This document shows, in pieces, positions 3,073-63,751 of a DNA stretch of 64,000 nucleotides. The stretch is from an uncultured Chloroflexia bacterium (GTDB lineage Bacteria; Chloroflexota; Limnocylindria; Limnocylindrales; CSP1-4). A model generated the notes under the pieces. The model did no database searches. It was not told the DNA's origin and saw only the letters and a list, made by a program, of their open reading frames with translations. The stretch lies in NCBI GenBank assembly GCA_963729175.1, contig CAVSMY010000010.1:264291-328290 (forward strand), in the 5' to 3' direction. How positions within the stretch are numbered: the first letter of the stretch is position 1; each line of letters begins with the position of its first letter. The position numbers and the translations under genes were made by a program.

Positions 3073-4785
3073 TCATTCGCGGTCGAGCCCTCGGATGTGC
3101 TGGATGATCGCGCCGACGATGACGATGAGGATGACGAGCAGCGTCAGGTGGACGAGCGGGTACGGGATCTCCCGGGGCACCATCGCCTCTGTCTCGTCGG
3201 GGTTGGCGAGGACGAGATACAGAACGGCGAAGACGACCAGCGCCGCCAAGCCGAGCGACACGAGCCGTCGGCGGGCCGACCGGATCCGCCGCCGGAACCC
3301 GAAGAGCGAGGTCTGGGCGTCGGTGATGAATGCCTGCTGACCCTCCAGGAACTCGACGAAGTCGATCGCTCGCTGGAGCCGGATGCCGCCGGCATACAGG
3401 CGCGGCATCGCCAGGCGTGGATCGAGCCAGCCGATCGCCTGCTGGCGGATGAGCCGCGAGAAGAACCGCCGGACCTGGCCTGCCAGGTCGTAGTCGCTGG
3501 CGAGCTGATGTCGGAGTGTCCCGAGCGTGACCATCATCTTCAGGTACGCGACGATGCTCGGCTCGAGCCGCAGCTCGTACGTCCGCATCGTCTTGAGGAT
3601 GTCGACGGCCAGCTTCGAGTACGGGTTGTCGGCCGACCGCGACACCGGCCCCACCGGACCAGCGGCCCGACGGCCGCTGGCCGACGCGAGGCCGCGCAGG
3701 TCATAGAAGAACGCCGAGTGGACGCGGATGAGCTCGCGCCGCGCTCCCACGACGTCGGTCGTGCCCGTCGGCGCGAGCCATCGCAGGAGCTCGTCGATCG
3801 CGTCTTCGACCTCGCCCCGGAAGAGCAGCCAGCTGTAGCGGGTCAGCGACTCGCGCAGGTCGTCCGAGAGCTGGCCGACGATCCCGTAGTCGACATAGCC
3901 GATCGCGTCGCCGGGGAGGACGAACAGGTTGGCCGGGTGCAGGTCGGCGTGGAAGTAGCCGTACACGAAGACCTGGTTGAGCATGTTCCAGTCCAGGTTG
4001 CGCACGACCCGATCGAGATCGACGCCGCGTGCCTCGAGCTTGGCCAGGTAGGCCGCGTTCCCGTCCCGTGACGCGACGACGATGTCGATGAGCGGGATGC
4101 CTTCGATGAGCTCGGTCGTGAGGACACGGGACGTCGTGTAGTCGGGGTGGACGCGGGCGATCCGCTCGTTCCGCTCGCCGTGCGCGTGCTCGTAGAGCAG
4201 CAACGCCTGGCGGGCCTCGACCAGATAGTCGAGCTCGTCACCGGTCCAGCGGGCGAACTCGTCGATGACGGTGCGACTCCGGGTGGCTCCGAAGAGATGG
4301 GTCCAGTCCAGGACCCGGGCGACCGCGTACATCAGGTCGATGTCCGCCTGGATGCTCTCGCGGATCCCCGGGCGCTGGACCTTGACCGCCACGGGCTCGC
4401 CGCTCGGCAGCACGGCCCGATGGACCTGGCCGATCGAAGCCGCCGCGAATGACGCCTCCTCGAAGGAGGCGAAGACGGCCTCCGGCGGCCCGCCCAGCTC
4501 GGTGATGACGATCTGGCGGACCTGGTCGTACGGGAACGGCCGGACCTGGTTGAGGAGCTTGAAGAGCTCATCGCAGTAGGCCGCCGGGAGGAGATCGAAC
4601 CGCATCGCCAGCATCTGCCCGAGCTTGACCCAGGCGCCGCCGAGCTCTTCGAGCGCCAGACGCATCCGGATCGGGCCGGGCTCCGCCGAAATCCGAACGA
4701 ACGGCAGCGACGGACCGATGACATACCGCCACCACACGACCAGGACCAGCCAGACGCGGCGGGGATGGCGGAGCAGCGTCCTCAT
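3073..4785 (-). CDS. ABC1/UbiB-family atypical protein kinase (AarF-domain) with C-terminal TM segments
   Basis: 570 aa. ABC1 kinase motifs (AASIGQVH, VAVKVQRPG, HADLHPANLFV, DYG) and hydrophobic C-terminal helices. Confidence 0.85.
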   Translation of the reverse strand: MRTLLRHPRRVWLVLVVWWRYVIGPSLPFVRISAEPGPIRMRLALEELGGAWVKLGQMLAMRFDLLPAAYCDELFKLLNQVRPFPYDQVRQIVITELGGPPEAVFASFEEASFAAASIGQVHRAVLPSGEPVAVKVQRPGIRESIQADIDLMYAVARVLDWTHLFGATRSRTVIDEFARWTGDELDYLVEARQALLLYEHAHGERNERIARVHPDYTTSRVLTTELIEGIPLIDIVVASRDGNAAYLAKLEARGVDLDRVVRNLDWNMLNQVFVYGYFHADLHPANLFVLPGDAIGYVDYGIVGQLSDDLRESLTRYSWLLFRGEVEDAIDELLRWLAPTGTTDVVGARRELIRVHSAFFYDLRGLASASGRRAAGPVGPVSRSADNPYSKLAVDILKTMRTYELRLEPSIVAYLKMMVTLGTLRHQLASDYDLAGQVRRFFSRLIRQQAIGWLDPRLAMPRLYAGGIRLQRAIDFVEFLEGQQAFITDAQTSLFGFRRRIRSARRRLVSLGLAALVVFAVLYLVLANPDETEAMVPREIPYPLVHLTLLVILIVIVGAIIQHIRGLDRE

Positions 4786-32693: not shown

Positions 32694-33059
32694 ATGGACA
32701 CCGACCCACTCAGCACGACCCTCAACGCGCTCGCCGATCCGACCCGACGGGCGATCCTGACTCGACTGGCTCAGGGCGAAGCGACCGTCTCGGAGCTCGC
32801 CGCCCCGTTCGACATGAGCCTGCCTGGCGTGTCGAAGCATCTGAAAGTCCTCCGCAACGCGGGTCTCATCACGCAGGGTCGTGATGCCCAGTGGCGACCA
32901 TGCAAGATCGAGCCCGCGCCGCTGCGCGACGTCTCCGATTGGGTCGGTCAGTACCGCAGGCTGTGGGAGGAGCGGCTCGACAGGATGGACGCCGTGCTGC
33001 GCGAGATGCAGGGCCTGCCGCCCAGCTCCCCCAGCGACGGACAAGGAGAAGACCGATGA
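32694..33059 (+). CDS. ArsR/SmtB-family transcriptional regulator
   Basis: LADPTRRAILTRLAQGEATVSELAAPFDMSLPGVSKHLKVLRNAGLI. Confidence 0.85.
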   Translation: MDTDPLSTTLNALADPTRRAILTRLAQGEATVSELAAPFDMSLPGVSKHLKVLRNAGLITQGRDAQWRPCKIEPAPLRDVSDWVGQYRRLWEERLDRMDAVLREMQGLPPSSPSDGQGEDR

Positions 33060-34450
33060 CCGTGACGCGCGACGACACCGCCACCGCCCTGGCGTCGCTC
33101 CAGGCGTCCCTGCGCGGGACCGTGATCGGACCGGAGGACGCCGAGTACGACGCCGCCCGCCGGGTCTTCCTCGGTGACGTCGACGGCCGCCCGGCAGCGA
33201 TCGCCCGCGTCGCTGACACCGAAGACGTCGCTCGGGTCATCGAGATCGCCCGCGAGTCGGGTCTGGAGCTGGCGGTCCGGAGCGGCGGTCACAGTGCCGC
33301 CGGCCACAGCACGACCGACGGTGGCATCGTCCTCGACCTCCACGATCTGACGAGCCTCGACATCGACGCCGACGACCGTTCGGCGTGGGCCGGTGGGGGT
33401 CTGACAGCCGGCGCGTACTCGAGCGCGGTCGGCGCCCAGGGGCTCGCGACGGGCTTCGGCGACACGGCATCCGTCGGGATCGGCGGGATCACCCTCGGCG
33501 GTGGGATCGGCTACCTCGTCCGCAAGCACGGTCTGACGATCGACTCGCTGCTCGGCGCGGAGATCATCACGGCCGATGGCCGGGCCAGGGTCGTCGACGC
33601 CGAGCACGAGCCGGATCTCTTCTGGGCCCTCCGCGGCGGTGGCGGCAACTTCGGCGTCGTCACCCGGTTCCGGTACCGGCTCCATCCGCTGCCGGAGGCG
33701 TTCGGTGGGCTCCTCGTCCTGCCCGCGACGGCGGAGACGATCGCCGGCTTTCTCGCTGCGGCCGAAGCGGCCCCGGACGAGCTCTCGACGATCGCGAACG
33801 TCATGCCGTGCCCGCCGCTGCCCTTCGTCGCGGAGGAGCATCACGGCCGGCTGGTGATCTTCGGCATCCTCCTGTTCGCCGGCGACCCGGCCGATGGGCA
33901 GCGTGCCGTCGCACCGTTCCGGGCGCTGGCGACGCCGCTCGGGGACCTCCTCCGACCGATGCCGTACGCCGAGATCTACCCGCCGGAGGACGAGTCGTAT
34001 CGACCGCTGGCGTTCAGCCGGACGCTGTTCACCGATCACATCGACGAGTCGACCGCGGCAAACATCCTGGAGCGCCTGGCGGCGATCGACGCACCGATGC
34101 GGGTCGCCCAGCTCCGGGCCCTGGGTGGCGCGATGGCCCGGGTGCCCCCGGACGCGACCGCGTTCGCTCACCGCGACAGCCGGCTGATGGTCAGCGTCGC
34201 CGCGTTCTATGGCGGTCCGGAGGACCTTCCCGAGAAGCAGGCGTGGGTCGAGGACCTCGCGGCCGACCTTCGCCAGGGCGCGCCACGGGCGTACGTGAAC
34301 TTCCTGGCCGATGAAGGCGAGGCGCGGATCCACGACGCCTACCCGGGCGCGACCTGGGACCGCCTCGCGGCGATCAAGGCCGCCGTCGACCCGGACAACC
34401 TGTTCCACCTGAACCAGAACGTCCGACCCGCGCAGGAGCGGGCCCGATGA
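33056..34450 (+). CDS. FAD-linked oxidase (PCMH-type FAD-binding, BBE-like)
   Basis: AAGGAG SD. ATGA overlap with arsR. FAD-binding GGGHS..G motifs and a BBE-like C-terminus. Confidence 0.85.
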   Translation: MTVTRDDTATALASLQASLRGTVIGPEDAEYDAARRVFLGDVDGRPAAIARVADTEDVARVIEIARESGLELAVRSGGHSAAGHSTTDGGIVLDLHDLTSLDIDADDRSAWAGGGLTAGAYSSAVGAQGLATGFGDTASVGIGGITLGGGIGYLVRKHGLTIDSLLGAEIITADGRARVVDAEHEPDLFWALRGGGGNFGVVTRFRYRLHPLPEAFGGLLVLPATAETIAGFLAAAEAAPDELSTIANVMPCPPLPFVAEEHHGRLVIFGILLFAGDPADGQRAVAPFRALATPLGDLLRPMPYAEIYPPEDESYRPLAFSRTLFTDHIDESTAANILERLAAIDAPMRVAQLRALGGAMARVPPDATAFAHRDSRLMVSVAAFYGGPEDLPEKQAWVEDLAADLRQGAPRAYVNFLADEGEARIHDAYPGATWDRLAAIKAAVDPDNLFHLNQNVRPAQERAR

Positions 34451-59340: not shown

Positions 59341-60070
59341 TCCCGTCGCCGTCGGCAGCGGGCGGGGGCCAGGGCCGACAGGGGCGGCGGATCGCGGGGA
59401 TGCGGCGGCTGGCGAACGTGCGCCGGATCCGTTCCCGTGGGATGGCTTCGGGGCCCTGGTCCGGCGGACGCCGCGCTATCTCAAGCTGGCCTGGCTCCTC
59501 GCCGGGGAGCCCGCGGTCCCCCGCACCAGGCGGGCCGCCGTCATCGCTGCGGCCGCCTATCTCGCCTCGCCGGTCGACCTCGTGCCCGGGATCATCCCGG
59601 TCGTCGGCCAGCTCGACGACCTCGCGATCGCGATGCTGGCGCTCCGCGCGGCGCTCCGCTCGCTTGACGAGCCGACGCGGACCCGGGTCCTGACCGAGGC
59701 GGACATCGGGCGCGACGACCTCGACGCCGACATCGGCACCATCGGCGCGGCGGCCGGCTGGCTGCTCCGGCGCGGCGTCCGGGTCACGCTCCGACTCGCC
59801 CGTCTCGCGATGGCCGCGGCGGTGGCGGCGGGGCGGGTCGGGGTCCGCGTCGGCGGCTCGGCCGGGCGGGCCGCCGTCCGGGGTGGCGTCGTCGTCGCGC
59901 GGCGCGGCTCGGCGATCGCGGGTGACGCTGGTCGAGCGGGGATCGGCGCGACGACCTCGACCGCGGGACGTGCGGCGCGGGGCACGGGACTCAGGGTCGG
60001 CACGGTCCGCGATGCGGTCCGCGGCCGTCTGGTCAGCCGGCCGCCGGTGGACCCGCCAGCGCCAGCTTGA
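59327..60070 (+). CDS. DUF1232 (YkvA-like) membrane protein
   Basis: YLKLAWLLAGEPAVPRTRRAAVIAAAAYLASPVDLVPGIIPVVGQLDDLAIAMLALR. Overlaps the tetR stop by 14 nt. Confidence 0.65.
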   Translation: MAAADPVAVGSGRGPGPTGAADRGDAAAGERAPDPFPWDGFGALVRRTPRYLKLAWLLAGEPAVPRTRRAAVIAAAAYLASPVDLVPGIIPVVGQLDDLAIAMLALRAALRSLDEPTRTRVLTEADIGRDDLDADIGTIGAAAGWLLRRGVRVTLRLARLAMAAAVAAGRVGVRVGGSAGRAAVRGGVVVARRGSAIAGDAGRAGIGATTSTAGRAARGTGLRVGTVRDAVRGRLVSRPPVDPPAPA

Positions 60071-61370
60071 TCAGCTGCCGCTCGAGCGCCTGCGGCTCGA
60101 GCCGGCTCTGGTTCGTCAGGATGACGACCGAGATCTGCTGCACGGGCAGCCAGCGCATCTGGTTCTTGAAGCCGACGAACGAGCCGCTGTGGCCGTAGGT
60201 GACGACCTTGTCGTACTTCACGTACTGGACTCCCAGGCCGTAGCGGGTCTTGGGGTGGAACTGGTCGACCCGCTTCACGTCGGCGATCTGGGCCTTGACC
60301 AACGCCTTCGGATAGACCTGGCCCGTGTAGAGCGCCTGGGCCCAGCGGGCGACGTCCTCGGCCGTGGAGGCGATCGCGCCGGCCGAGCCGGCCGCGGTCA
60401 CGACCGAGGTGAACGGCGTCAGCGGATCGTTCCCGCCGAGCGGGGTCTTGGTCGTCGAGGCCGGCGGGCCGGTCACGCGATGGCCGCGGACGACCGGGCC
60501 GGGGGGCCGCTCGGCACCCTGGACGTACGTGTGGGTCAGGCCGAGCGGGTCGAGCAGTCGCTGCCGGACCAGGGTCGCCCAGGGGATGCCGGTCACCCGC
60601 TCGACGAGCTGGCCGAGATAGACGTAGCCGGTGTTCGAGTACCGCCAGAAGGTGTCGGGATGGACGCGATCCTTCCAGCCGAAGGCGAGCGCGTCGTCGA
60701 CGGTCCAGACCTTGTGGGTGTCCGAGTTCAGGGCGGGCTCGATGCCAGCCACCCGGAACATGTCGGGCAAGCCGCTGGTGTGGTCGAGCAGGTGGCGGAC
60801 GGTCATCTTGGGGTCGAGCCTGGCCTCCGGCAGGAGCGGCGCGACGAGCTGGTCCAGGCCGAGCTTGCCCTCGTCGACGAGCTGGAGGACCAGGGCTGCG
60901 GTGAAGGTCTTGGTGATGCTCGCGAGTGCGAACTCCGACGACGTCGTCACCGGCGCGCCGGTCGCTGCGTCGGCCACCCCGAACGCCCCGACCCAGACTC
61001 GACCGTCGGGCCAGATGACGGCCGCGCTCACGCCGGGCGAGCCGGTGGTCTTCAGCCAGGCCCGGGCGGCGGCGTCGAGGGCCGCGTCGGCGACGTGGAC
61101 GGAGCCGGATCCCTGGCCGACGCCCGGGTCGGGTGACGTTCCGGGCGATCCGCTGCCCGGTGACCCGGACGGGGACGGCCGCGTCGAGGGGGCATCCAGG
61201 ATCGCGGGGCTCGCGGACGCGCCGGGGCCGGTGATGCCTGCGACGGAGGCCTGCGGGGACGGGCTCGGGGCCGGACTGCCGGTCGCCGAGGTCAAGGCGA
61301 CGCGGGCGGTCCCGGCAAGGAACGCCGCTGCGAGCACGACGACGACGACGGGGGCGACGAGCCGGCGCAC
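60033..61370 (-). CDS. Secreted serine hydrolase, beta-lactamase/DD-peptidase (class C-related) family
   Basis: Signal peptide, Pro/Ser/Gly linker, SITKTFTA (SxxK), YSNTGY (YxN), HSG. Confidence 0.8.
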   Translation of the reverse strand: MRRLVAPVVVVVLAAAFLAGTARVALTSATGSPAPSPSPQASVAGITGPGASASPAILDAPSTRPSPSGSPGSGSPGTSPDPGVGQGSGSVHVADAALDAAARAWLKTTGSPGVSAAVIWPDGRVWVGAFGVADAATGAPVTTSSEFALASITKTFTAALVLQLVDEGKLGLDQLVAPLLPEARLDPKMTVRHLLDHTSGLPDMFRVAGIEPALNSDTHKVWTVDDALAFGWKDRVHPDTFWRYSNTGYVYLGQLVERVTGIPWATLVRQRLLDPLGLTHTYVQGAERPPGPVVRGHRVTGPPASTTKTPLGGNDPLTPFTSVVTAAGSAGAIASTAEDVARWAQALYTGQVYPKALVKAQIADVKRVDQFHPKTRYGLGVQYVKYDKVVTYGHSGSFVGFKNQMRWLPVQQISVVILTNQSRLEPQALERQLIKLALAGPPAAG

Positions 61371-61429
61371 CGACGGAGTGTACGGCCTCGAGCGGTCGCA
61401 GCGGCCGGGACTCGAGTACGCTGTCCCCG

Positions 61430-62716
61430 ATGCCCCCTGATCACCCCCCGACGGGCGCCGACCTCCTGCGCGCGGTCGGTCTGCTCGCCGACGGTCCCGT
61501 CGCCTGGGATCGGCCGGTCCCGCTCGCGGGACCAGGTGTCTACACGATCGAGCTGGCCAACCCGCTGCCGAGCGCGCCGATCGAGCTGAGCCGGGTCGGG
61601 AAGTGGATCGAGCGGGTCCCGATGCTCCGGCTCGACGGCATCCGGCCGACCTCGAAGGCGCTCGACGCCCGGCTCGCGTCGTACTGGATCCCGGGTCAGG
61701 TCGTGGTGTTCATCGGATCGGCGGCGACGTCCGTCGGTGGCCGCGTGCAGGGACTCCGGGCCACCGTCCTCGGCGATCGCAAGCCCTACGCCGGCGCCCA
61801 GTGGCTCGCGACGCTGCGCGATCTGTCCCGGGCCCGGATCTGGTTCGCCGCGACCGACGCGCCCGAGGAGTACGAGGACGCGCTGCTGTCGGCGTTCGCC
61901 GAGGGGGTGCCACCGGAGGTCTCCGCCCGCACGCGCGACCCGCGACTGCTGCTGCCGTGGGCGGTGCTCCGACGTCCGACCGGCGAGCGTCGCGAGCACG
62001 GGATCAGTGGCGCGTTCCTGCCCGAGCCGGTCACCCGACCGACGCCCACGACCACACTGCGCGACGTCCCGCCCGCCGAGCCCGACCCGACTGCGCCGTC
62101 CCTCGGCGGCGTCCGGGCGCCGCGATCCGCGTCGACGCGAGCGGCCGGCGGATCCTCGGCCTCGGCTCCGGGCGGACGGACGTCATCGGGGACGTCGCGC
62201 TCGGGTGGTCGGCGGACCTCGGCGGCGGCCGGTGGTCCATCCGTCGCCCCGTCCGAGCTGTCGGCCGAGGGCAAGGCCCGGCTCGAGGCCGAGCTCGACG
62301 AGCTCCGGACCGTCCAGCGACCGGCGGCGATCGCCCGGGTGGCGACGGCCCGCGAACACGGTGATCTGAAGGAGAACGCCGAGTACCACGCCGCGCGCGA
62401 GGAGCTGGGGTTCATCGAGGGCCGGATCCAGGCCCTCGAGGCGCGGCTGCGCAACGCGGTGATCATCGATGCGGCCGGCAGCGTGACCGCGATGCTGGGC
62501 TCGACGGTCGTCGTCGAGATCGTCGACGAGATCAGCGAGCCGGAGCAGGTGACGTACCAGCTCGTCAGCTCGGCCGAGGCACGGCCGGCGGCGGGTCGGC
62601 TGTCGACGAGCTCGCCGGTCGGACAGGCGCTGCTCGGGCGGTCGGCCGGCGACGTCGCCATCGTCCGCACCCCGTCCGGCGACGACGTCCACTACCGGAT
62701 CGTGGAGGTCCGCTGA
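61430..62716 (+). CDS. GreA/GreB-family transcription elongation factor fused to a ~260-aa N-terminal extension
   Basis: C-terminal ~160 aa: LSAEGKARLEAELDELRTVQRPAAIARVATAREHGDLKENAEYHAAREELGFIEGRIQALEARL..., then an FKBP-like C-domain. N-terminal region has no recognised domain (YTIELANPLPSAPIELSRVGKWIERVP...), then a disordered linker. Confidence 0.65.
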   Translation: MPPDHPPTGADLLRAVGLLADGPVAWDRPVPLAGPGVYTIELANPLPSAPIELSRVGKWIERVPMLRLDGIRPTSKALDARLASYWIPGQVVVFIGSAATSVGGRVQGLRATVLGDRKPYAGAQWLATLRDLSRARIWFAATDAPEEYEDALLSAFAEGVPPEVSARTRDPRLLLPWAVLRRPTGERREHGISGAFLPEPVTRPTPTTTLRDVPPAEPDPTAPSLGGVRAPRSASTRAAGGSSASAPGGRTSSGTSRSGGRRTSAAAGGPSVAPSELSAEGKARLEAELDELRTVQRPAAIARVATAREHGDLKENAEYHAAREELGFIEGRIQALEARLRNAVIIDAAGSVTAMLGSTVVVEIVDEISEPEQVTYQLVSSAEARPAAGRLSTSSPVGQALLGRSAGDVAIVRTPSGDDVHYRIVEVR

Positions 62717-63058
62717 CCGTCCTCGGGCGTCACGGCGGCGCGCGGCGGATCGGACGCAGGCGCCGGGGCGGCGGGCCCGAGCGGGCACGCGGGCCCACGC
62801 ACGCGAAACGTGCGAGTGAGTGCACCAGACGCGAATGCCACGAGCCAGTCGTTCTGCTCCCGCATCGACTCGCACGCATCGCATGCGATCCGGCATCGGA
62901 GCGGGCGGTCGGCACGCAGTCGGGCCCTTGCCGAGTGTGGACATGCACGGGTGCCGTGCACTTGGCCTGGAAGACGGCGAGGAGTAGACGGCGAAGCCGC
63001 CACCGGGTGATCGAAGTCCGGTGGCGGCTCGTCGTGGGAGGGTCCCGCAGTCGCCCGG
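62717..63058. other. Structured 340-bp intergenic region between convergent genes (multiple palindromes)
   Basis: CGCACG-cgaaa-CGTGCG, the 12-bp palindrome ATCGCATGCGAT, GCACGG-gtg-CCGTGC, CCACCGG-N11-CCGGTGG. Confidence 0.3.
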
Positions 63059-63751
63059 CTAGGCGGCGTCCTCGACGATCCGGTGCTCGACCGCCCACAG
63101 GGCGGCCTGCGTCCGGCTCTGGAGGCCGAGCTTGCCGAGGATGTTCGAGACGTAGGTCCGGGCGGTCCGCTCGGTGATGAACAGGACCGCGCCGATCTCC
63201 TTGTTGCTCATGCCCTGGCCGAGCAGTCGGATCACGTCGCGCTCGCGTTCGGTCAGGGGCTCGACCGGCTCGGGCTCGTGGCGGGCGCGCAGCCGCTGGG
63301 CGAGGAGCCGGGCGACCTGGCGATCGAGATGCATCTCGCCGTGGAACGCGTCGCGGACCGCGGCGGCGACCTCCTCGGCGTCGGCATCCTTCAGGACATA
63401 GCCCGTCGCGCCGGCCTCGAGGGCGGCCGTGACCTTCGACTCCTCGATGAACGACGTCATCGTCACGACCTCGGTCTCCGGCCGCTCCTCCTTGATCCGG
63501 CCGATCGCCGTGACGCCATCCATGACCGGCATCATCAGGTCCATCAGCACGACGTCCGGCTCGAGGCGACGGGTCATCGCCACGCCCTCGCTACCGTCCC
63601 CGGCCTCGCCGACCACCGCGATGTCGTCCTGGAGGTCAAAGAAGGCGCGCAGGCCCGACCGGACGACCTGATGGTCGTCGACGAGGAGGACCCGGATCCG
63701 TTCCGGCGGTCCCGCCTCGACGGGCTCGGCTCCGGCGATGGGCTCGGACAT
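63059..63751 (-). CDS. LuxR/NarL-family two-component response regulator
   Basis: Receiver (VLLVDDHQVVRSGL...DVVLMDLMMPVMDG) plus C-terminal LuxR HTH (LTERERDVIRLLGQGMSNKEIGAVLFITERTARTYVSNILGKLG). Confidence 0.9.
   Translation of the reverse strand: MSEPIAGAEPVEAGPPERIRVLLVDDHQVVRSGLRAFFDLQDDIAVVGEAGDGSEGVAMTRRLEPDVVLMDLMMPVMDGVTAIGRIKEERPETEVVTMTSFIEESKVTAALEAGATGYVLKDADAEEVAAAVRDAFHGEMHLDRQVARLLAQRLRARHEPEPVEPLTERERDVIRLLGQGMSNKEIGAVLFITERTARTYVSNILGKLGLQSRTQAALWAVEHRIVEDAA

Follow-up and report, generated by a model that had tools for sequence, protein, structure and literature searches.

Few regulators of bacterial RNA polymerase (RNAP) have been studied as thoroughly as the Gre factors, which are regarded as small and single-purpose. 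Whether the rescue of backtracked polymerase is linked to nucleotide-excision or break repair is debated in E. coli. Among described systems, Kaur, Iyer, Burroughs and Aravind (2021, eLife; PMC8195603) reported DNase effectors fused to TPR, GreA/B-C and PIN domains, and our literature search found no paper on a GreA-GIY-YIG fusion or on Gre factors of Limnocylindria. Here, we analysed a gene for a GreA of 428 aa, which departs from the small single-module size of Gre factors. The gene lies in a 64-kb stretch of DNA, referred to below as the window; its features are collected in Table 1. We find that the fusion is conserved across a group of Chloroflexota and is routinely missed by public annotation.

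Table 1. Features of the fused greA gene and its neighbours (positions in the window)
Feature	Coordinates	Strand	Basis
Single ORF: N-domain, linker and GreA	61430..62716	+	ATG start, 428 aa, stop included
N-terminal folded domain (aa 1-200), divergent GIY-YIG-superfamily-like	61430..62029	+	AF2, homologues, hhalign
'GVY' (aa 36-38), putative GIY motif on strand beta(36-41)	61535..61543	+	Motif and secondary-structure order
'VFIGSAATSVGGR' (aa 93-105), YIG-like motif and conserved Arg105	61706..61744	+	Aligned to UvrC '(V/L)YVGKAknLkkRv'
Glu149-Asp150 in helix 145-158	61874..61879	+	hhalign: on the Glu of UvrC '..LLE'
Disordered linker (aa 201-274), Ala/Pro/Arg/Ser/Gly-rich, net charge +5	62030..62251	+	pLDDT <50 for aa 224-271
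GreA N-terminal coiled-coil domain (aa 277-345)	62258..62464	+	PF03449 GreA_GreB_N, E 7e-27
Acidic tip D312-L-K-E315	62363..62374	+	Alignment to 1grj; equivalents of E. coli GreA D41/E44
GreA C-terminal globular FKBP-like domain (aa 355-427)	62492..62710	+	PF01272, E 5e-18
-10-like hexamer TACGCT, putative leaderless promoter	61417..61422	+	7 nt upstream of ATG
Divergent beta-lactamase-family gene, upstream neighbour	60033..61370	-	Upstream in 73/82 related loci; Pfam Beta-lactamase in relatives
Response regulator (Response_reg and GerE/LuxR HTH), downstream neighbour	63059..63751	-	Downstream in 52/82 related loci; Pfam in relatives

The fused gene and its conservation

The ORF is a real single gene encoding one polypeptide, in which a folded N-domain (aa ~1-200) and a linker (aa ~201-274) precede a complete GreA (aa 275-428). 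An identical full-length protein is present in NCBI/ENA as an unnamed entry. GC3 is 0.8-1.0 across the entire ORF, and in the linker (aa ~211-270) GC2 also reaches up to 0.8-1.0, as expected from its Ala/Pro/Ser/Gly/Arg-rich composition. The full-length AF2 model consists of two confidently folded modules and a disordered linker (pTM 0.53). Orthologues are 363-447 aa long, with linkers of 50-102 aa (median 70) that are rich in A/P/R/G and carry a net charge of -3 to +10. An earlier note on this DNA had described an uninterrupted, GC3-biased 428-aa ORF with a GreA module and a Pro/Ser/Gly/Arg disordered linker, and all of this was borne out. The 260-aa N-terminal domain that it proposed is corrected here to a folded domain of ~200 aa plus a disordered linker of ~75 aa.

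The GreA module is complete and its acidic coiled-coil tip is intact. Both Pfam domains score above their cut-offs (PF03449, E 7.4e-27, 93.8 bits against 24.5; PF01272, E 5.3e-18, 65.2 bits against 26.9), and aa 278-427 align to E. coli GreA (PDB 1grj) with an E value of 7e-33. The alignment includes GDLKENAEYHAARE, within which D312 and E315 are identical to E. coli, and the tip motif G[DE]L.EN..Y is present in 72 of the 73 fused orthologues. Two NCBIfam models are reached (NF001263, 146.3 against a cut-off of 145; TIGR01462, 142.4 against 139); the other GreA equivalog sub-models and the GreB models stay below the NCBIfam cut-off. The AF2 model places the coiled-coil helices at 279-309 and 317-341, and a Foldseek search with the full model matches 1grj (E 4e-13, TM 0.79, rmsd 2.8) and 9a7t_B (E 4.5e-15). 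One further Gre candidate in the window, a weak tblastn match at 33020-33202, falls within the ORF of an FAD-linked oxidase and was dismissed as chance similarity.

The related loci come from Limnocylindria-type Chloroflexota MAGs, the loci examined being the best-scoring 80 of 329 N-domain loci. Of 82 such loci, 74 have an open frame that runs uninterrupted from the N-domain into GreA, and read in this frame the linker shows amino-acid conservation. Six loci are broken by scattered indels, all of them on long-read contigs with other fragmented genes, and the break point differs in each. In the closest relative a 1-nt indel is followed by a shifted frame that runs on through the homologous linker into GreA. 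Because all six broken loci shift in one direction, a programmed +1 frameshift was considered; it was rejected, as the breaks fall right after the N-domain, early, in the middle or late in the linker, or inside GreA. The neighbours listed in Table 1 make the greA-fusion locus syntenic, and its inheritance looks vertical.

Public annotation gives a different picture of this gene. Pipelines call it as a GreA of ~150 aa with arbitrary or even CTG starts, and about 830 nt are left as 'intergenic'. The 'short GreA' database entries are the fused locus cut at arbitrary internal starts, in one case at a CTG. Stand-alone GreA was also looked for in close relatives, and all four candidates checked proved to be the fused locus, either mis-called or frame-broken.

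The start region suggests how the gene may be translated. A TAnnnT hexamer lies 6-8 nt upstream of the start in 44 of 73 fused loci (42 times as TACCAT), against 0.2% at random control positions. No SD-like sequence was found upstream of the ATG, and scans of 61200-63100 for sigma-70 promoter and intrinsic-terminator consensus returned nothing. The conserved hexamer just upstream of the start suggests that the mRNA is leaderless, with the hexamer as its putative promoter element, and translation would thus begin at the ATG of the N-domain. As for an internal start, which the earlier note had proposed to look for near 62230, the window ORF holds no in-frame ATG, GTG or TTG between aa 179 and 304. 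None is conserved in the orthologues either: 40 of 74 lack a start codon near the GreA N-terminus, and the others have scattered codons without an SD.

The N-domain and its probable relationship to GIY-YIG

Judged by homologue counts, the N-terminal part is far above chance: one search recovered 128 homologues at E<=1e-3, and an exhaustive search with a profile recovered 1207 cluster representatives. By these searches the N-domain is a member of a large unannotated family, which also occurs as stand-alone proteins of ~200 aa or fused to other small C-terminal modules. The family identity of an alternative C-terminal domain of ~70 aa in such relatives was searched for, and none was found. On Mycobacterium plasmids, stand-alone relatives adjoin DNA-metabolism genes; metagenome contigs with stand-alone relatives are too short for informative gene context.

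The N-domain is modelled with high confidence (AF2, pLDDT 95.5, pTM 0.90), so the structured-looking sequence reported at the N-terminus is indeed a folded domain of ~200 aa. Direct searches with it were mostly empty. The window N-domain has no Pfam match even at E<=10, PF01541 and PF20815 included, and no match in PDB sequences; NCBIfam, PADLOC and PHROGs gave nothing at threshold. Foldseek with the N-domain model found no GIY-YIG structure in the PDB and returned weak, non-significant viral matches only. In the stand-alone relatives GIY-YIG and GIY_YIG_2 are the sole sub-threshold Pfam matches, located at the YIG-Arg motif (best E 0.003, 18 bits against a cut-off of 22.4). UvrC models recur in the NCBIfam scan for 7 of 27 family members, and GIY-YIG/UvrC are the sole families to recur across these two independent libraries. 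PDB 1yd6 (UvrC) also matches at the YIG-Arg motif.

A signal also came from profile-profile comparison. With hhalign, the 184-sequence family alignment matched a 14-sequence UvrC-type alignment with a probability of 89.4% (E 2e-6, 63 columns), against 2.6% for the reversed control and 0-0.4% for 20 shuffles; with E. coli UvrC alone the probability was 72-73% (control 0.25%). The aligned block comprises the YIG motif, Arg, beta3 and the Glu helix. GIY and Asn lie outside it, and their equivalences therefore are by motif only. The AF2 model shows its elements in the order beta-[insert]-beta-alpha-(alpha)-beta-alpha, which is compatible with GIY-YIG. The spacing does not follow the family rule of ~10-11 residues in a beta-hairpin: GVY occupies aa 36-38 and (F/Y)IG aa 94-96, the two strands being separated by a ~55-residue insertion with two helices, and a second insertion precedes the final Asn. 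We consider the homology of the N-domain to GIY-YIG present, at a moderate rather than conclusive level. The 'weakly GIY-YIG-like' character proposed in the earlier note thus holds at the profile level, but not by curated-model thresholds or by fold search, where a confident AF2 fold was obtained but no GIY-YIG structure was retrieved.

The catalytic set of GIY-YIG nucleases such as UvrC and I-TevI comprises the Tyr of GIY, the Tyr of YIG, Lys, Arg, Glu and Asn. The window protein has Y38, F94, S97, R105, E149 and V179 at these positions, so the full set is not present. Within the fused clade (74 proteins) G36 is invariant; at position 38, 65 proteins carry F and 9 carry Y. G96 and R105 are invariant or nearly so, residue 94 is mostly Tyr (60 proteins, against 13 with Phe), and position 97 carries A or S in place of Lys. 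E149 is kept in 72 of 74, D150 in all 74, and Asn in 62 of 74; several Trp, Pro and Gly residues are invariant. The commonest pattern is F-Y-A-R-E-N, and both Tyr occur together in just 5 of 74. The stand-alone relatives have GVY or GIY at the GIY position and keep the Y-Y-(K)-R-E-N set. Residue comparison thus points to partial loss of the catalytic set in the fused clade.

Explanations for the fused protein

The reading that we prefer, with a probability of roughly 0.6, is that the protein serves as GreA in this lineage, being encoded at the conserved greA locus, and that the domain tethered to it is a GIY-YIG derivative which binds nucleic acid and is probably not catalytic. With the first Tyr mostly Phe, Lys lost and Arg, Glu-Asp and several Trp, Pro and Gly invariant in the fused clade, the N-domain is most likely a non-catalytic or weakly catalytic binding module. 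The mode of action that we infer is tentative. After translation of a probably leaderless mRNA from the N-domain's ATG, the GreA module may work as usual, inserting its coiled coil into the RNAP secondary channel and stimulating cleavage of backtracked RNA. The tethered N-domain may sit by the downstream DNA, immediately outside the opening of the channel, where it could target GreA to particular stalled or backtracked complexes, or retain it there. The suggestion of a new variant of RNAP secondary-channel factor, already made for this locus, is supported by the conserved in-frame fusion, by the lack of a conserved internal start, by synteny and by the predicted folding of both modules.

It is hardly credible that the window ORF joins two separate genes, whether through a frame that is open by chance or through faulty assembly. 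Many database entries list the N-domain and GreA apart, but these are frame-broken long-read contigs with differing break points or annotation truncations of an open frame. The in-frame state of 74 of the 82 loci, the linker conserved in the fusion frame, the lack of a conserved internal start, synteny and the scattered break points refute the chance read-through of two genes that the earlier note had allowed for. The outcomes by which the note would have been refuted, separate genes with an internal start and SD in orthologues, or an unconserved N-terminal region as in non-coding 5' sequence, did not occur, since apparent splits are indels or truncations and the N-domain is conserved and fused. 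One gene might also give two products, a free GreA of ~17 kDa and a free N-domain, through cleavage in the linker or minor non-canonical internal initiation, the fusion then serving mainly co-expression. We find this improbable. In its favour, the disordered linker is long and differs in length between orthologues, and a Met, Val or Leu codon stands near the GreA N-terminus in some orthologues; however, there is no conserved start or SD, a cleavage motif was not identified, and conservation of the fusion over many species argues that physical linkage is selected. Very improbable, too, is that the protein belongs to the anti-phage or conflict systems with 'effector + GreA/B-C' architecture (Kaur et al. 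2021), which use a Gre-derived domain to direct a toxic effector at RNAP that has been hijacked. In favour of this, a nuclease-like domain is joined to a Gre module here, and DNase effectors with TPR, GreA/B-C and PIN are reported there (PMC8195603). Against it stand the full GreA, with the C-domain and a coiled coil that carries the catalytic tip, the absence of TPR and PIN in Pfam searches, the conserved synteny, the vertical-looking inheritance, the eroded catalytic residues and the lack of any PADLOC or PHROG match.

The remaining alternatives concern the N-domain itself. It may be an active nuclease, a UvrC-like GIY-YIG site that GreA docking brings to backtracked or lesion-stalled RNAP, where it would nick DNA (transcription-coupled incision) or cut extruded RNA or R-loops. 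We hold this to be possible but doubtful. Almost all fused proteins keep R105, E149 and D150, most keep the YIG Tyr and Asn (60 and 62 of 74), the closest homology is to UvrC, downstream DNA is within possible reach of the long flexible linker, and stand-alone relatives combine the full Y-Y-K-R-E-N set with DNA-metabolism contexts. However, the first Tyr is Phe in 65 of 74 and Lys is always lost, the window protein moreover has F94 and V179, and a DNA nuclease constitutively tethered to RNAP would be hazardous. Its stronger form, in which the GreA of a whole bacterial class, at a conserved greA locus, carries a cutting-competent UvrC-related GIY-YIG domain and docking delivers incision to downstream DNA, extruded RNA or an R-loop, is distinctly unlikely. 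Also unlikely is an N-domain that is not derived from GIY-YIG, with another or novel alpha/beta fold that regulates GreA by binding a protein, a small molecule or RNAP, the YIG-like motif being convergent. Foldseek gave no PDB match despite a pLDDT of 95.5, the curated-model matches are all sub-threshold and rest largely on one motif of ~20 residues, and the insertions relative to the canonical core are large. Convergence is at odds with an hhalign block that reaches past the motif, via beta3, to the Glu helix (89% against controls of at most 2.6%), with the recurrence of GIY-YIG/UvrC, and of no other family, in two independent libraries, and with stand-alone members that have the complete motif order PGVY...YIGKA..L..R...E...P..N.

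The lineage-wide GreA would place a domain of a nuclease superfamily beside the downstream DNA, at the entrance of the secondary channel. Binding or cutting of nucleic acid there would tie the rescue of backtracked polymerase physically and directly to the processing of DNA or RNA; cutting competence, if true, would link transcript cleavage with transcription-coupled repair or processing in one polypeptide. About 1200 clusters of GIY-YIG-like proteins remain without a family name, and the corrected annotation alters the gene model and the domain catalogue alike.

Comparison with known systems

The C-terminal part of the protein (aa 275-428) shares with E. coli GreA (1grj) the coiled coil with its GDLKENAEY tip and the C-terminal globular domain, at an identity of ~39-41%. 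Canonical GreA has ~160 aa (~155-165) and nothing N-terminal of the coiled coil, whereas here a 274-aa extension, the folded ~200-aa domain plus the disordered linker, precedes it. Longer proteins with a C-terminal GreA and an uncharacterised N-terminal part are covered by two models, NF004969/PRK06330 ('transcript cleavage factor/unknown domain fusion protein', 718 aa) and NF011309/PRK14720 (906 aa). Only the GreA part matches them, however (model positions 572-703 of 718 and 761-899 of 906), scoring 38 bits (cut-off 697) and 75 bits (cut-off 714); their N-terminal parts are unrelated to the N-domain, and the host lineage differs too.

What the N-domain has in common with GIY-YIG of the UvrC N-terminal type (1yd6; PF01541/PF20815) is the sequence of motifs PGVY...(L/V)Y(I/V)G(K)A..L..R...E...P..N and the beta-beta-alpha-beta-alpha order. 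It differs by ~55 residues from GIY to YIG, in place of ~10 in the UvrC type, by the insertion before Asn and, in the GreA-fused clade, by changes of Tyr to Phe, Lys to Ala or Ser and sometimes Asn to Val; the curated models are not reached and a Foldseek match is absent. With the effector-TPR-GreA/B-C-PIN systems (PMC8195603) the fused protein shares a Gre-derived RNAP-docking module and nuclease-type domains in one polypeptide. Those systems evolve fast, occur sporadically and have just the C-terminal domain of Gre, which they combine with TPR and PIN; the protein described here lacks TPR and PIN, and its GreA is complete, conserved and encoded on the chromosome in a syntenic position.

A single gene encoding a complete GreA with an N-terminal extension

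The GreA fusion is encoded by a single ORF, and the last 154 residues of its product form a complete GreA. The cut-offs of two NCBIfam models are exceeded (NF001263, 146.3 bits vs 145; TIGR01462, 142.4 vs 139), both Gre domains are found by Pfam (see the table), and aa 278-427 align to E. coli GreA (PDB 1grj, E 7e-33), whose GDLKENAEYHAARE tip is identical. Comparison of the whole-protein AF2 model with 1grj by Foldseek gave E 4e-13 and TM 0.79. The tip motif, intact in the window protein, is kept in 72 of 73 orthologues. GC3 stays at 0.8-1.0 along the entire ORF, while GC2 climbs to 0.8-1.0 within the linker because this segment is rich in Ala, Pro, Ser, Gly and Arg. The ORF is thus as the earlier note described it, a single GC3-biased frame with a full GreA at its C-terminus.

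The same note had considered two genes read through by chance, with an internal start before GreA. No in-frame ATG, GTG or TTG occurs from aa 179 to aa 304 of the window ORF, and the GreA module therefore has no canonical initiation of its own. With aa 1-206 as the sole query we found 128 proteins. Every one comes from a Chloroflexota/Limnocylindrales-type MAG, and their lengths vary widely (full GreA fusions, Arg-rich tails or a different C-terminal domain); no Pfam domain was detected in the N-domain region of any of them. In a GTDB scan with one genome per species the N-domain was encoded in 329 genomes, and the best 80 loci were classified together with the closest relative, L001, and the window. 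N-domain and GreA share one stop-free frame in 74 of these 82 loci; the remainder are six frame-shifted loci, one truncated contig and one locus with an alternative C-terminal domain. Around the GreA N-terminus (-12 to +6 codons), 40 of the 74 fused loci have no start codon, and the others have nothing but Val or Leu codons at scattered positions, with no SD-like sequence.

L001 (80% identity, syntenic) has fragmented genes. Its DNA alignment to the window shows one extra base directly after the N-domain, and the shifted frame continues through a homologous linker into GreA without a stop; it is the same GreA fusion, broken by an indel. The six shifted loci all come from long-read 'contig_' assemblies, and no two break at the same point: the frame is lost directly behind the N-domain, at an early, middle or late linker position, or within GreA. 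Apart from the shift, one of them, L040, has almost the same linker as the in-frame L055. A recoding site was rejected, since the break point differs in each of the six contigs, and the shifted loci are indel errors or recent lesions. All six breaks share the same frame-shift direction (+1). In long-read MAGs ('contig_', MFD / ERZ2503xxxx), 1-nt indels split the fusion gene and its neighbours (L001, L032, L040, L057, L072, L077, L101, L104); in L001 the beta-lactamase and DEAD helicase genes are also split.

With the GreA module as sole query, numerous entries of the same clade named 'GreA' and 138-270 aa long were retrieved, their starts dispersed through the linker or, for some, within helix 1. 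The four entries examined all map to this syntenic locus, two in frame-broken long-read contigs and two as annotation truncations. In L102 (3001-3465) the frame is open for 262 codons 5' of the called ATG, with the entire N-domain inside; in L103 (3001-3459), where a CTG start is called, it is open for 419 codons further upstream. The short entries are annotation artefacts. Public annotation shortens the gene at arbitrary internal starts (L102, L103; also P0256-P0310), and in L102 and L103 the ~830 nt upstream that encode the N-domain are left without a gene call. The exact window protein is present in NCBI/ENA, unnamed. Since the N-domain is conserved and fused in frame, internal starts are not conserved, the breaks are scattered and the short GreAs are artefacts, the two-gene or chance-ORF reading is refuted.

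Features of the GreA fusion and its upstream region (residue roles assigned by motif or alignment; residue counts over 74 fused proteins)
Feature	Position	Strand	Details	Window residue
GreA fusion ORF	61430-62716	+	single ORF, ATG start, 428 aa	
GreA_GreB_N	aa 277-345		Pfam, E 7e-27	
GreA/GreB C-terminal domain	aa 355-427		Pfam, E 5e-18	
TACGCT (TAnnnT hexamer)	61417-61422	+	7 nt before GreA-fusion ATG at 61430	
Intergenic gap	61371-61429		59 nt, between beta-lactamase-family GTG (61370, -) and GreA-fusion ATG (61430)	
TACACT (TAnnnT hexamer)	61377-61382	-	6 nt before beta-lactamase-family GTG	
GIY Tyr	aa 38		Phe 65, Tyr 9	Y
YIG Tyr	aa 94		Tyr 60, Phe 13	F
Lys in UvrC and many stand-alone members	aa 97		Ala or Ser 68, never Lys	S
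Arg	aa 105		73/74	R
Glu	aa 149		72/74	E
Asp	aa 150		74/74	D
Asn	aa 179		Asn 62, Val 10	V

The N-domain and its probable kinship to GIY-YIG

The 260-aa domain proposed earlier is real as an extension but consists of a ~200-aa folded domain and a ~75-aa disordered linker. The AF2 model of the N-domain (62-sequence alignment) reached pLDDT 95.5 and pTM 0.90, with the order alpha, beta(21-25), beta(36-41), two helices, beta(92-98), alpha(102-111), short helix, beta(136-141), alpha(145-158). In the full-length model confidence is high for the N-domain and for GreA, and linker aa 224-271 fall below pLDDT 50, which bears out the disorder suspected earlier; pTM is 0.53, as expected because the modules are oriented independently. 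The linker is flexible, and in orthologues it measures 50-102 aa, is A/P/R/G-rich and carries a net charge of -3 to +10. Just after the N-domain, 52 of the 74 fused orthologues have a short acidic motif, ...P.TR(I/V)V.VPDGDAEGARGEPP... (e.g., L040:~4600-4650, L057, L072, L077, L103), which may serve as a short linear motif for interaction; the window linker has ...TTTLRDVPPAEPDPTAPS... in its place.

An exhaustive profile search gave 1207 cluster representatives of the N-domain family, which extends beyond the GreA fusion. Stand-alone members of ~200 aa carry more canonical motifs: PGVY, then (I/V)LYIGKAG.SLR.RV.QYY, then E, then PFAN. The sole Pfam matches of wider-family relatives were GIY_YIG_2 and GIY-YIG at the YIG-Arg motif (5/10 members, best E 0.003, sub-threshold); NCBIfam UvrC models recurred below threshold in 7/27, and a PDB profile search placed UvrC 1yd6 at the same motif with E 1.3. 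In profile-profile comparison the family matched the E. coli UvrC N-terminus alone at 72% (0.25% for an unrelated control). The 184-sequence family alignment matched 14 UvrC-type sequences from annotated records at 89.4% probability (hhalign, E 2e-6), over 63 columns that run from YIG through the Arg helix and beta3 to the Glu helix, against 2.6% for the reversed control and 0-0.4% for 20 column shuffles. The GIY and Asn equivalences are by motif, outside this block, and a ~55-residue two-helix insertion replaces the canonical ~10-residue GIY-YIG spacing. The likeness noticed earlier as weak therefore stands at the profile level, but scores stayed below curated GIY-YIG thresholds and the fold search of the N-domain did not recover it. 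We consider homology to the GIY-YIG superfamily probable (about 0.75).

The residues that perform chemistry in characterised GIY-YIG enzymes are known from UvrC, I-TevI and Eco29kI. Both Tyr are retained in only 5/74 fused proteins, whereas W59, G115, P119, W125, P176, R187 and G191 are (near-)invariant. Chemistry residues thus appear eroded in fused N-domains and pocket-shaping residues strongly kept, a pattern that would be expected of a domain kept for binding and not for cutting.

The full Y-Y-K-R-E-N set occurs among stand-alone proteins (members: P0174, P0182, P0183, P0198, P0200, P0213, P0229, P0247, P0250, P0251). Elsewhere the N-domain is fused to a C-terminal ~90-aa 'GRIRIP...W(D/N)PR..ERSG' module (P0216, P0222, P0232, P0234) or to a weak HARE-HTH match (P0235); such small modules are probably DNA-binding, and the arrangement recalls that of modular GIY-YIG endonucleases. 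Two mycobacterial plasmid members are annotated 'hypothetical protein': one (L087:6962-7576, Mycobacterium sp. JS623 pMYCSM02) overlaps the end of a uracil-DNA-glycosylase-family gene beside a large HNH endonuclease, and the other (L088:6938-7423, Mycobacterium sp. ELW1 pELW1-1) shares its gene block with WhiA, RNase HI and a DNA methyltransferase. These neighbours and fusion partners connect the other family members with DNA transactions. A paralogous architecture in the same clade has N-domain, linker and a ~70-aa Cys-containing helical domain instead of GreA (L044:4001-5002), with the pattern ...LN..LQ..AC......AA.EL...G.LR....P...LR.LL..G.I.G..QD.D(R/G)RW.I.C (P0016, P0019, P0022-24, P0026, P0029, P0039, P0046, P0048, P0050-52, P0055, P0067, P0079, P0109-111, P0118); neither Pfam nor PDB offers a match for it, and its HTH-like signals are faint.

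Genomic setting and a putative leaderless start

A divergent beta-lactamase-family gene lies upstream in 73/82 loci and a Response_reg+GerE regulator downstream in 52/82, and these conserved neighbours indicate a vertically inherited chromosomal locus. The window has a G+C content of 71%, and its best matches are all Limnocylindria-type MAGs. A second Gre factor was considered at 32891-34450 (+) and rejected: this 519-aa ORF is FAD-linked oxidase-like, and its weak tblastn match to the GreA coiled coil (E 0.01) is due to chance.

No SD-like sequence precedes the window ATG, and a generic sigma-70 promoter and terminator scan gave no match. A TAnnnT hexamer (42x TACCAT) stands 6-8 nt before the start codon in 44/73 fused loci, compared with 0.2% of random control positions. 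This spacing would fit the geometry of a -10 element from which a leaderless mRNA is transcribed; if so, translation would begin at the N-domain start codon. In the window the gap between the divergent genes holds two such hexamers back to back, one per gene, and both transcripts may lack a leader. Orthologous loci have a further conserved block, GCACCATAGCGCG, ~30 nt upstream, and its reverse complement includes TATGGT.

Proposed role and comparison with known systems

The GreA fusion adds a new accessory domain to a Gre factor, and the finding is real; the earlier suggestion of a new secondary-channel factor variant holds for one conserved polypeptide with a complete GreA, an intact tip and an extra folded domain. 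From established Gre biology, the coiled coil would enter the RNAP secondary channel and the C-domain would bind at its rim. Because the coiled coil would have its N-terminus outside the channel, the extension would sit at the mouth, on the side of the enzyme where the downstream DNA lies, with a possible reach of many tens of Angstroms. We propose that the N-domain binds DNA, or some other nucleic-acid feature that stalled complexes present, and might thereby bias GreA recruitment or residence.

An active nuclease tethered to GreA, which the full residue set of stand-alone relatives would allow, seems unlikely for the fused proteins with their altered tyrosines and missing Lys. That the N-domain is a regulatory domain outside GIY-YIG would agree with the sub-threshold family scores and disagree with the hhalign result; we regard it as rather unlikely. 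Post-translational separation of the two halves, which are joined by a flexible linker and kept in one frame, is improbable. A conflict system is very improbable, since the window protein has all of GreA and its locus is syntenic, and a chance ORF, set against 74 in-frame loci, is scarcely credible.

A lineage-wide, mis-annotated GreA with a putative nuclease-superfamily domain is directly testable. Our literature search found no paper on a GreA-GIY-YIG fusion. NCBIfam PRK06330 and PRK14720 already catalogue GreA with a long uncharacterised N-terminal region, but the GreA parts alone match the window protein. The effector-TPR-GreA/B-C-PIN conflict proteins of Kaur et al. 2021 (PMC8195603) are sporadic and without the Gre coiled coil, whereas the window protein retains the whole of GreA at a conserved locus.
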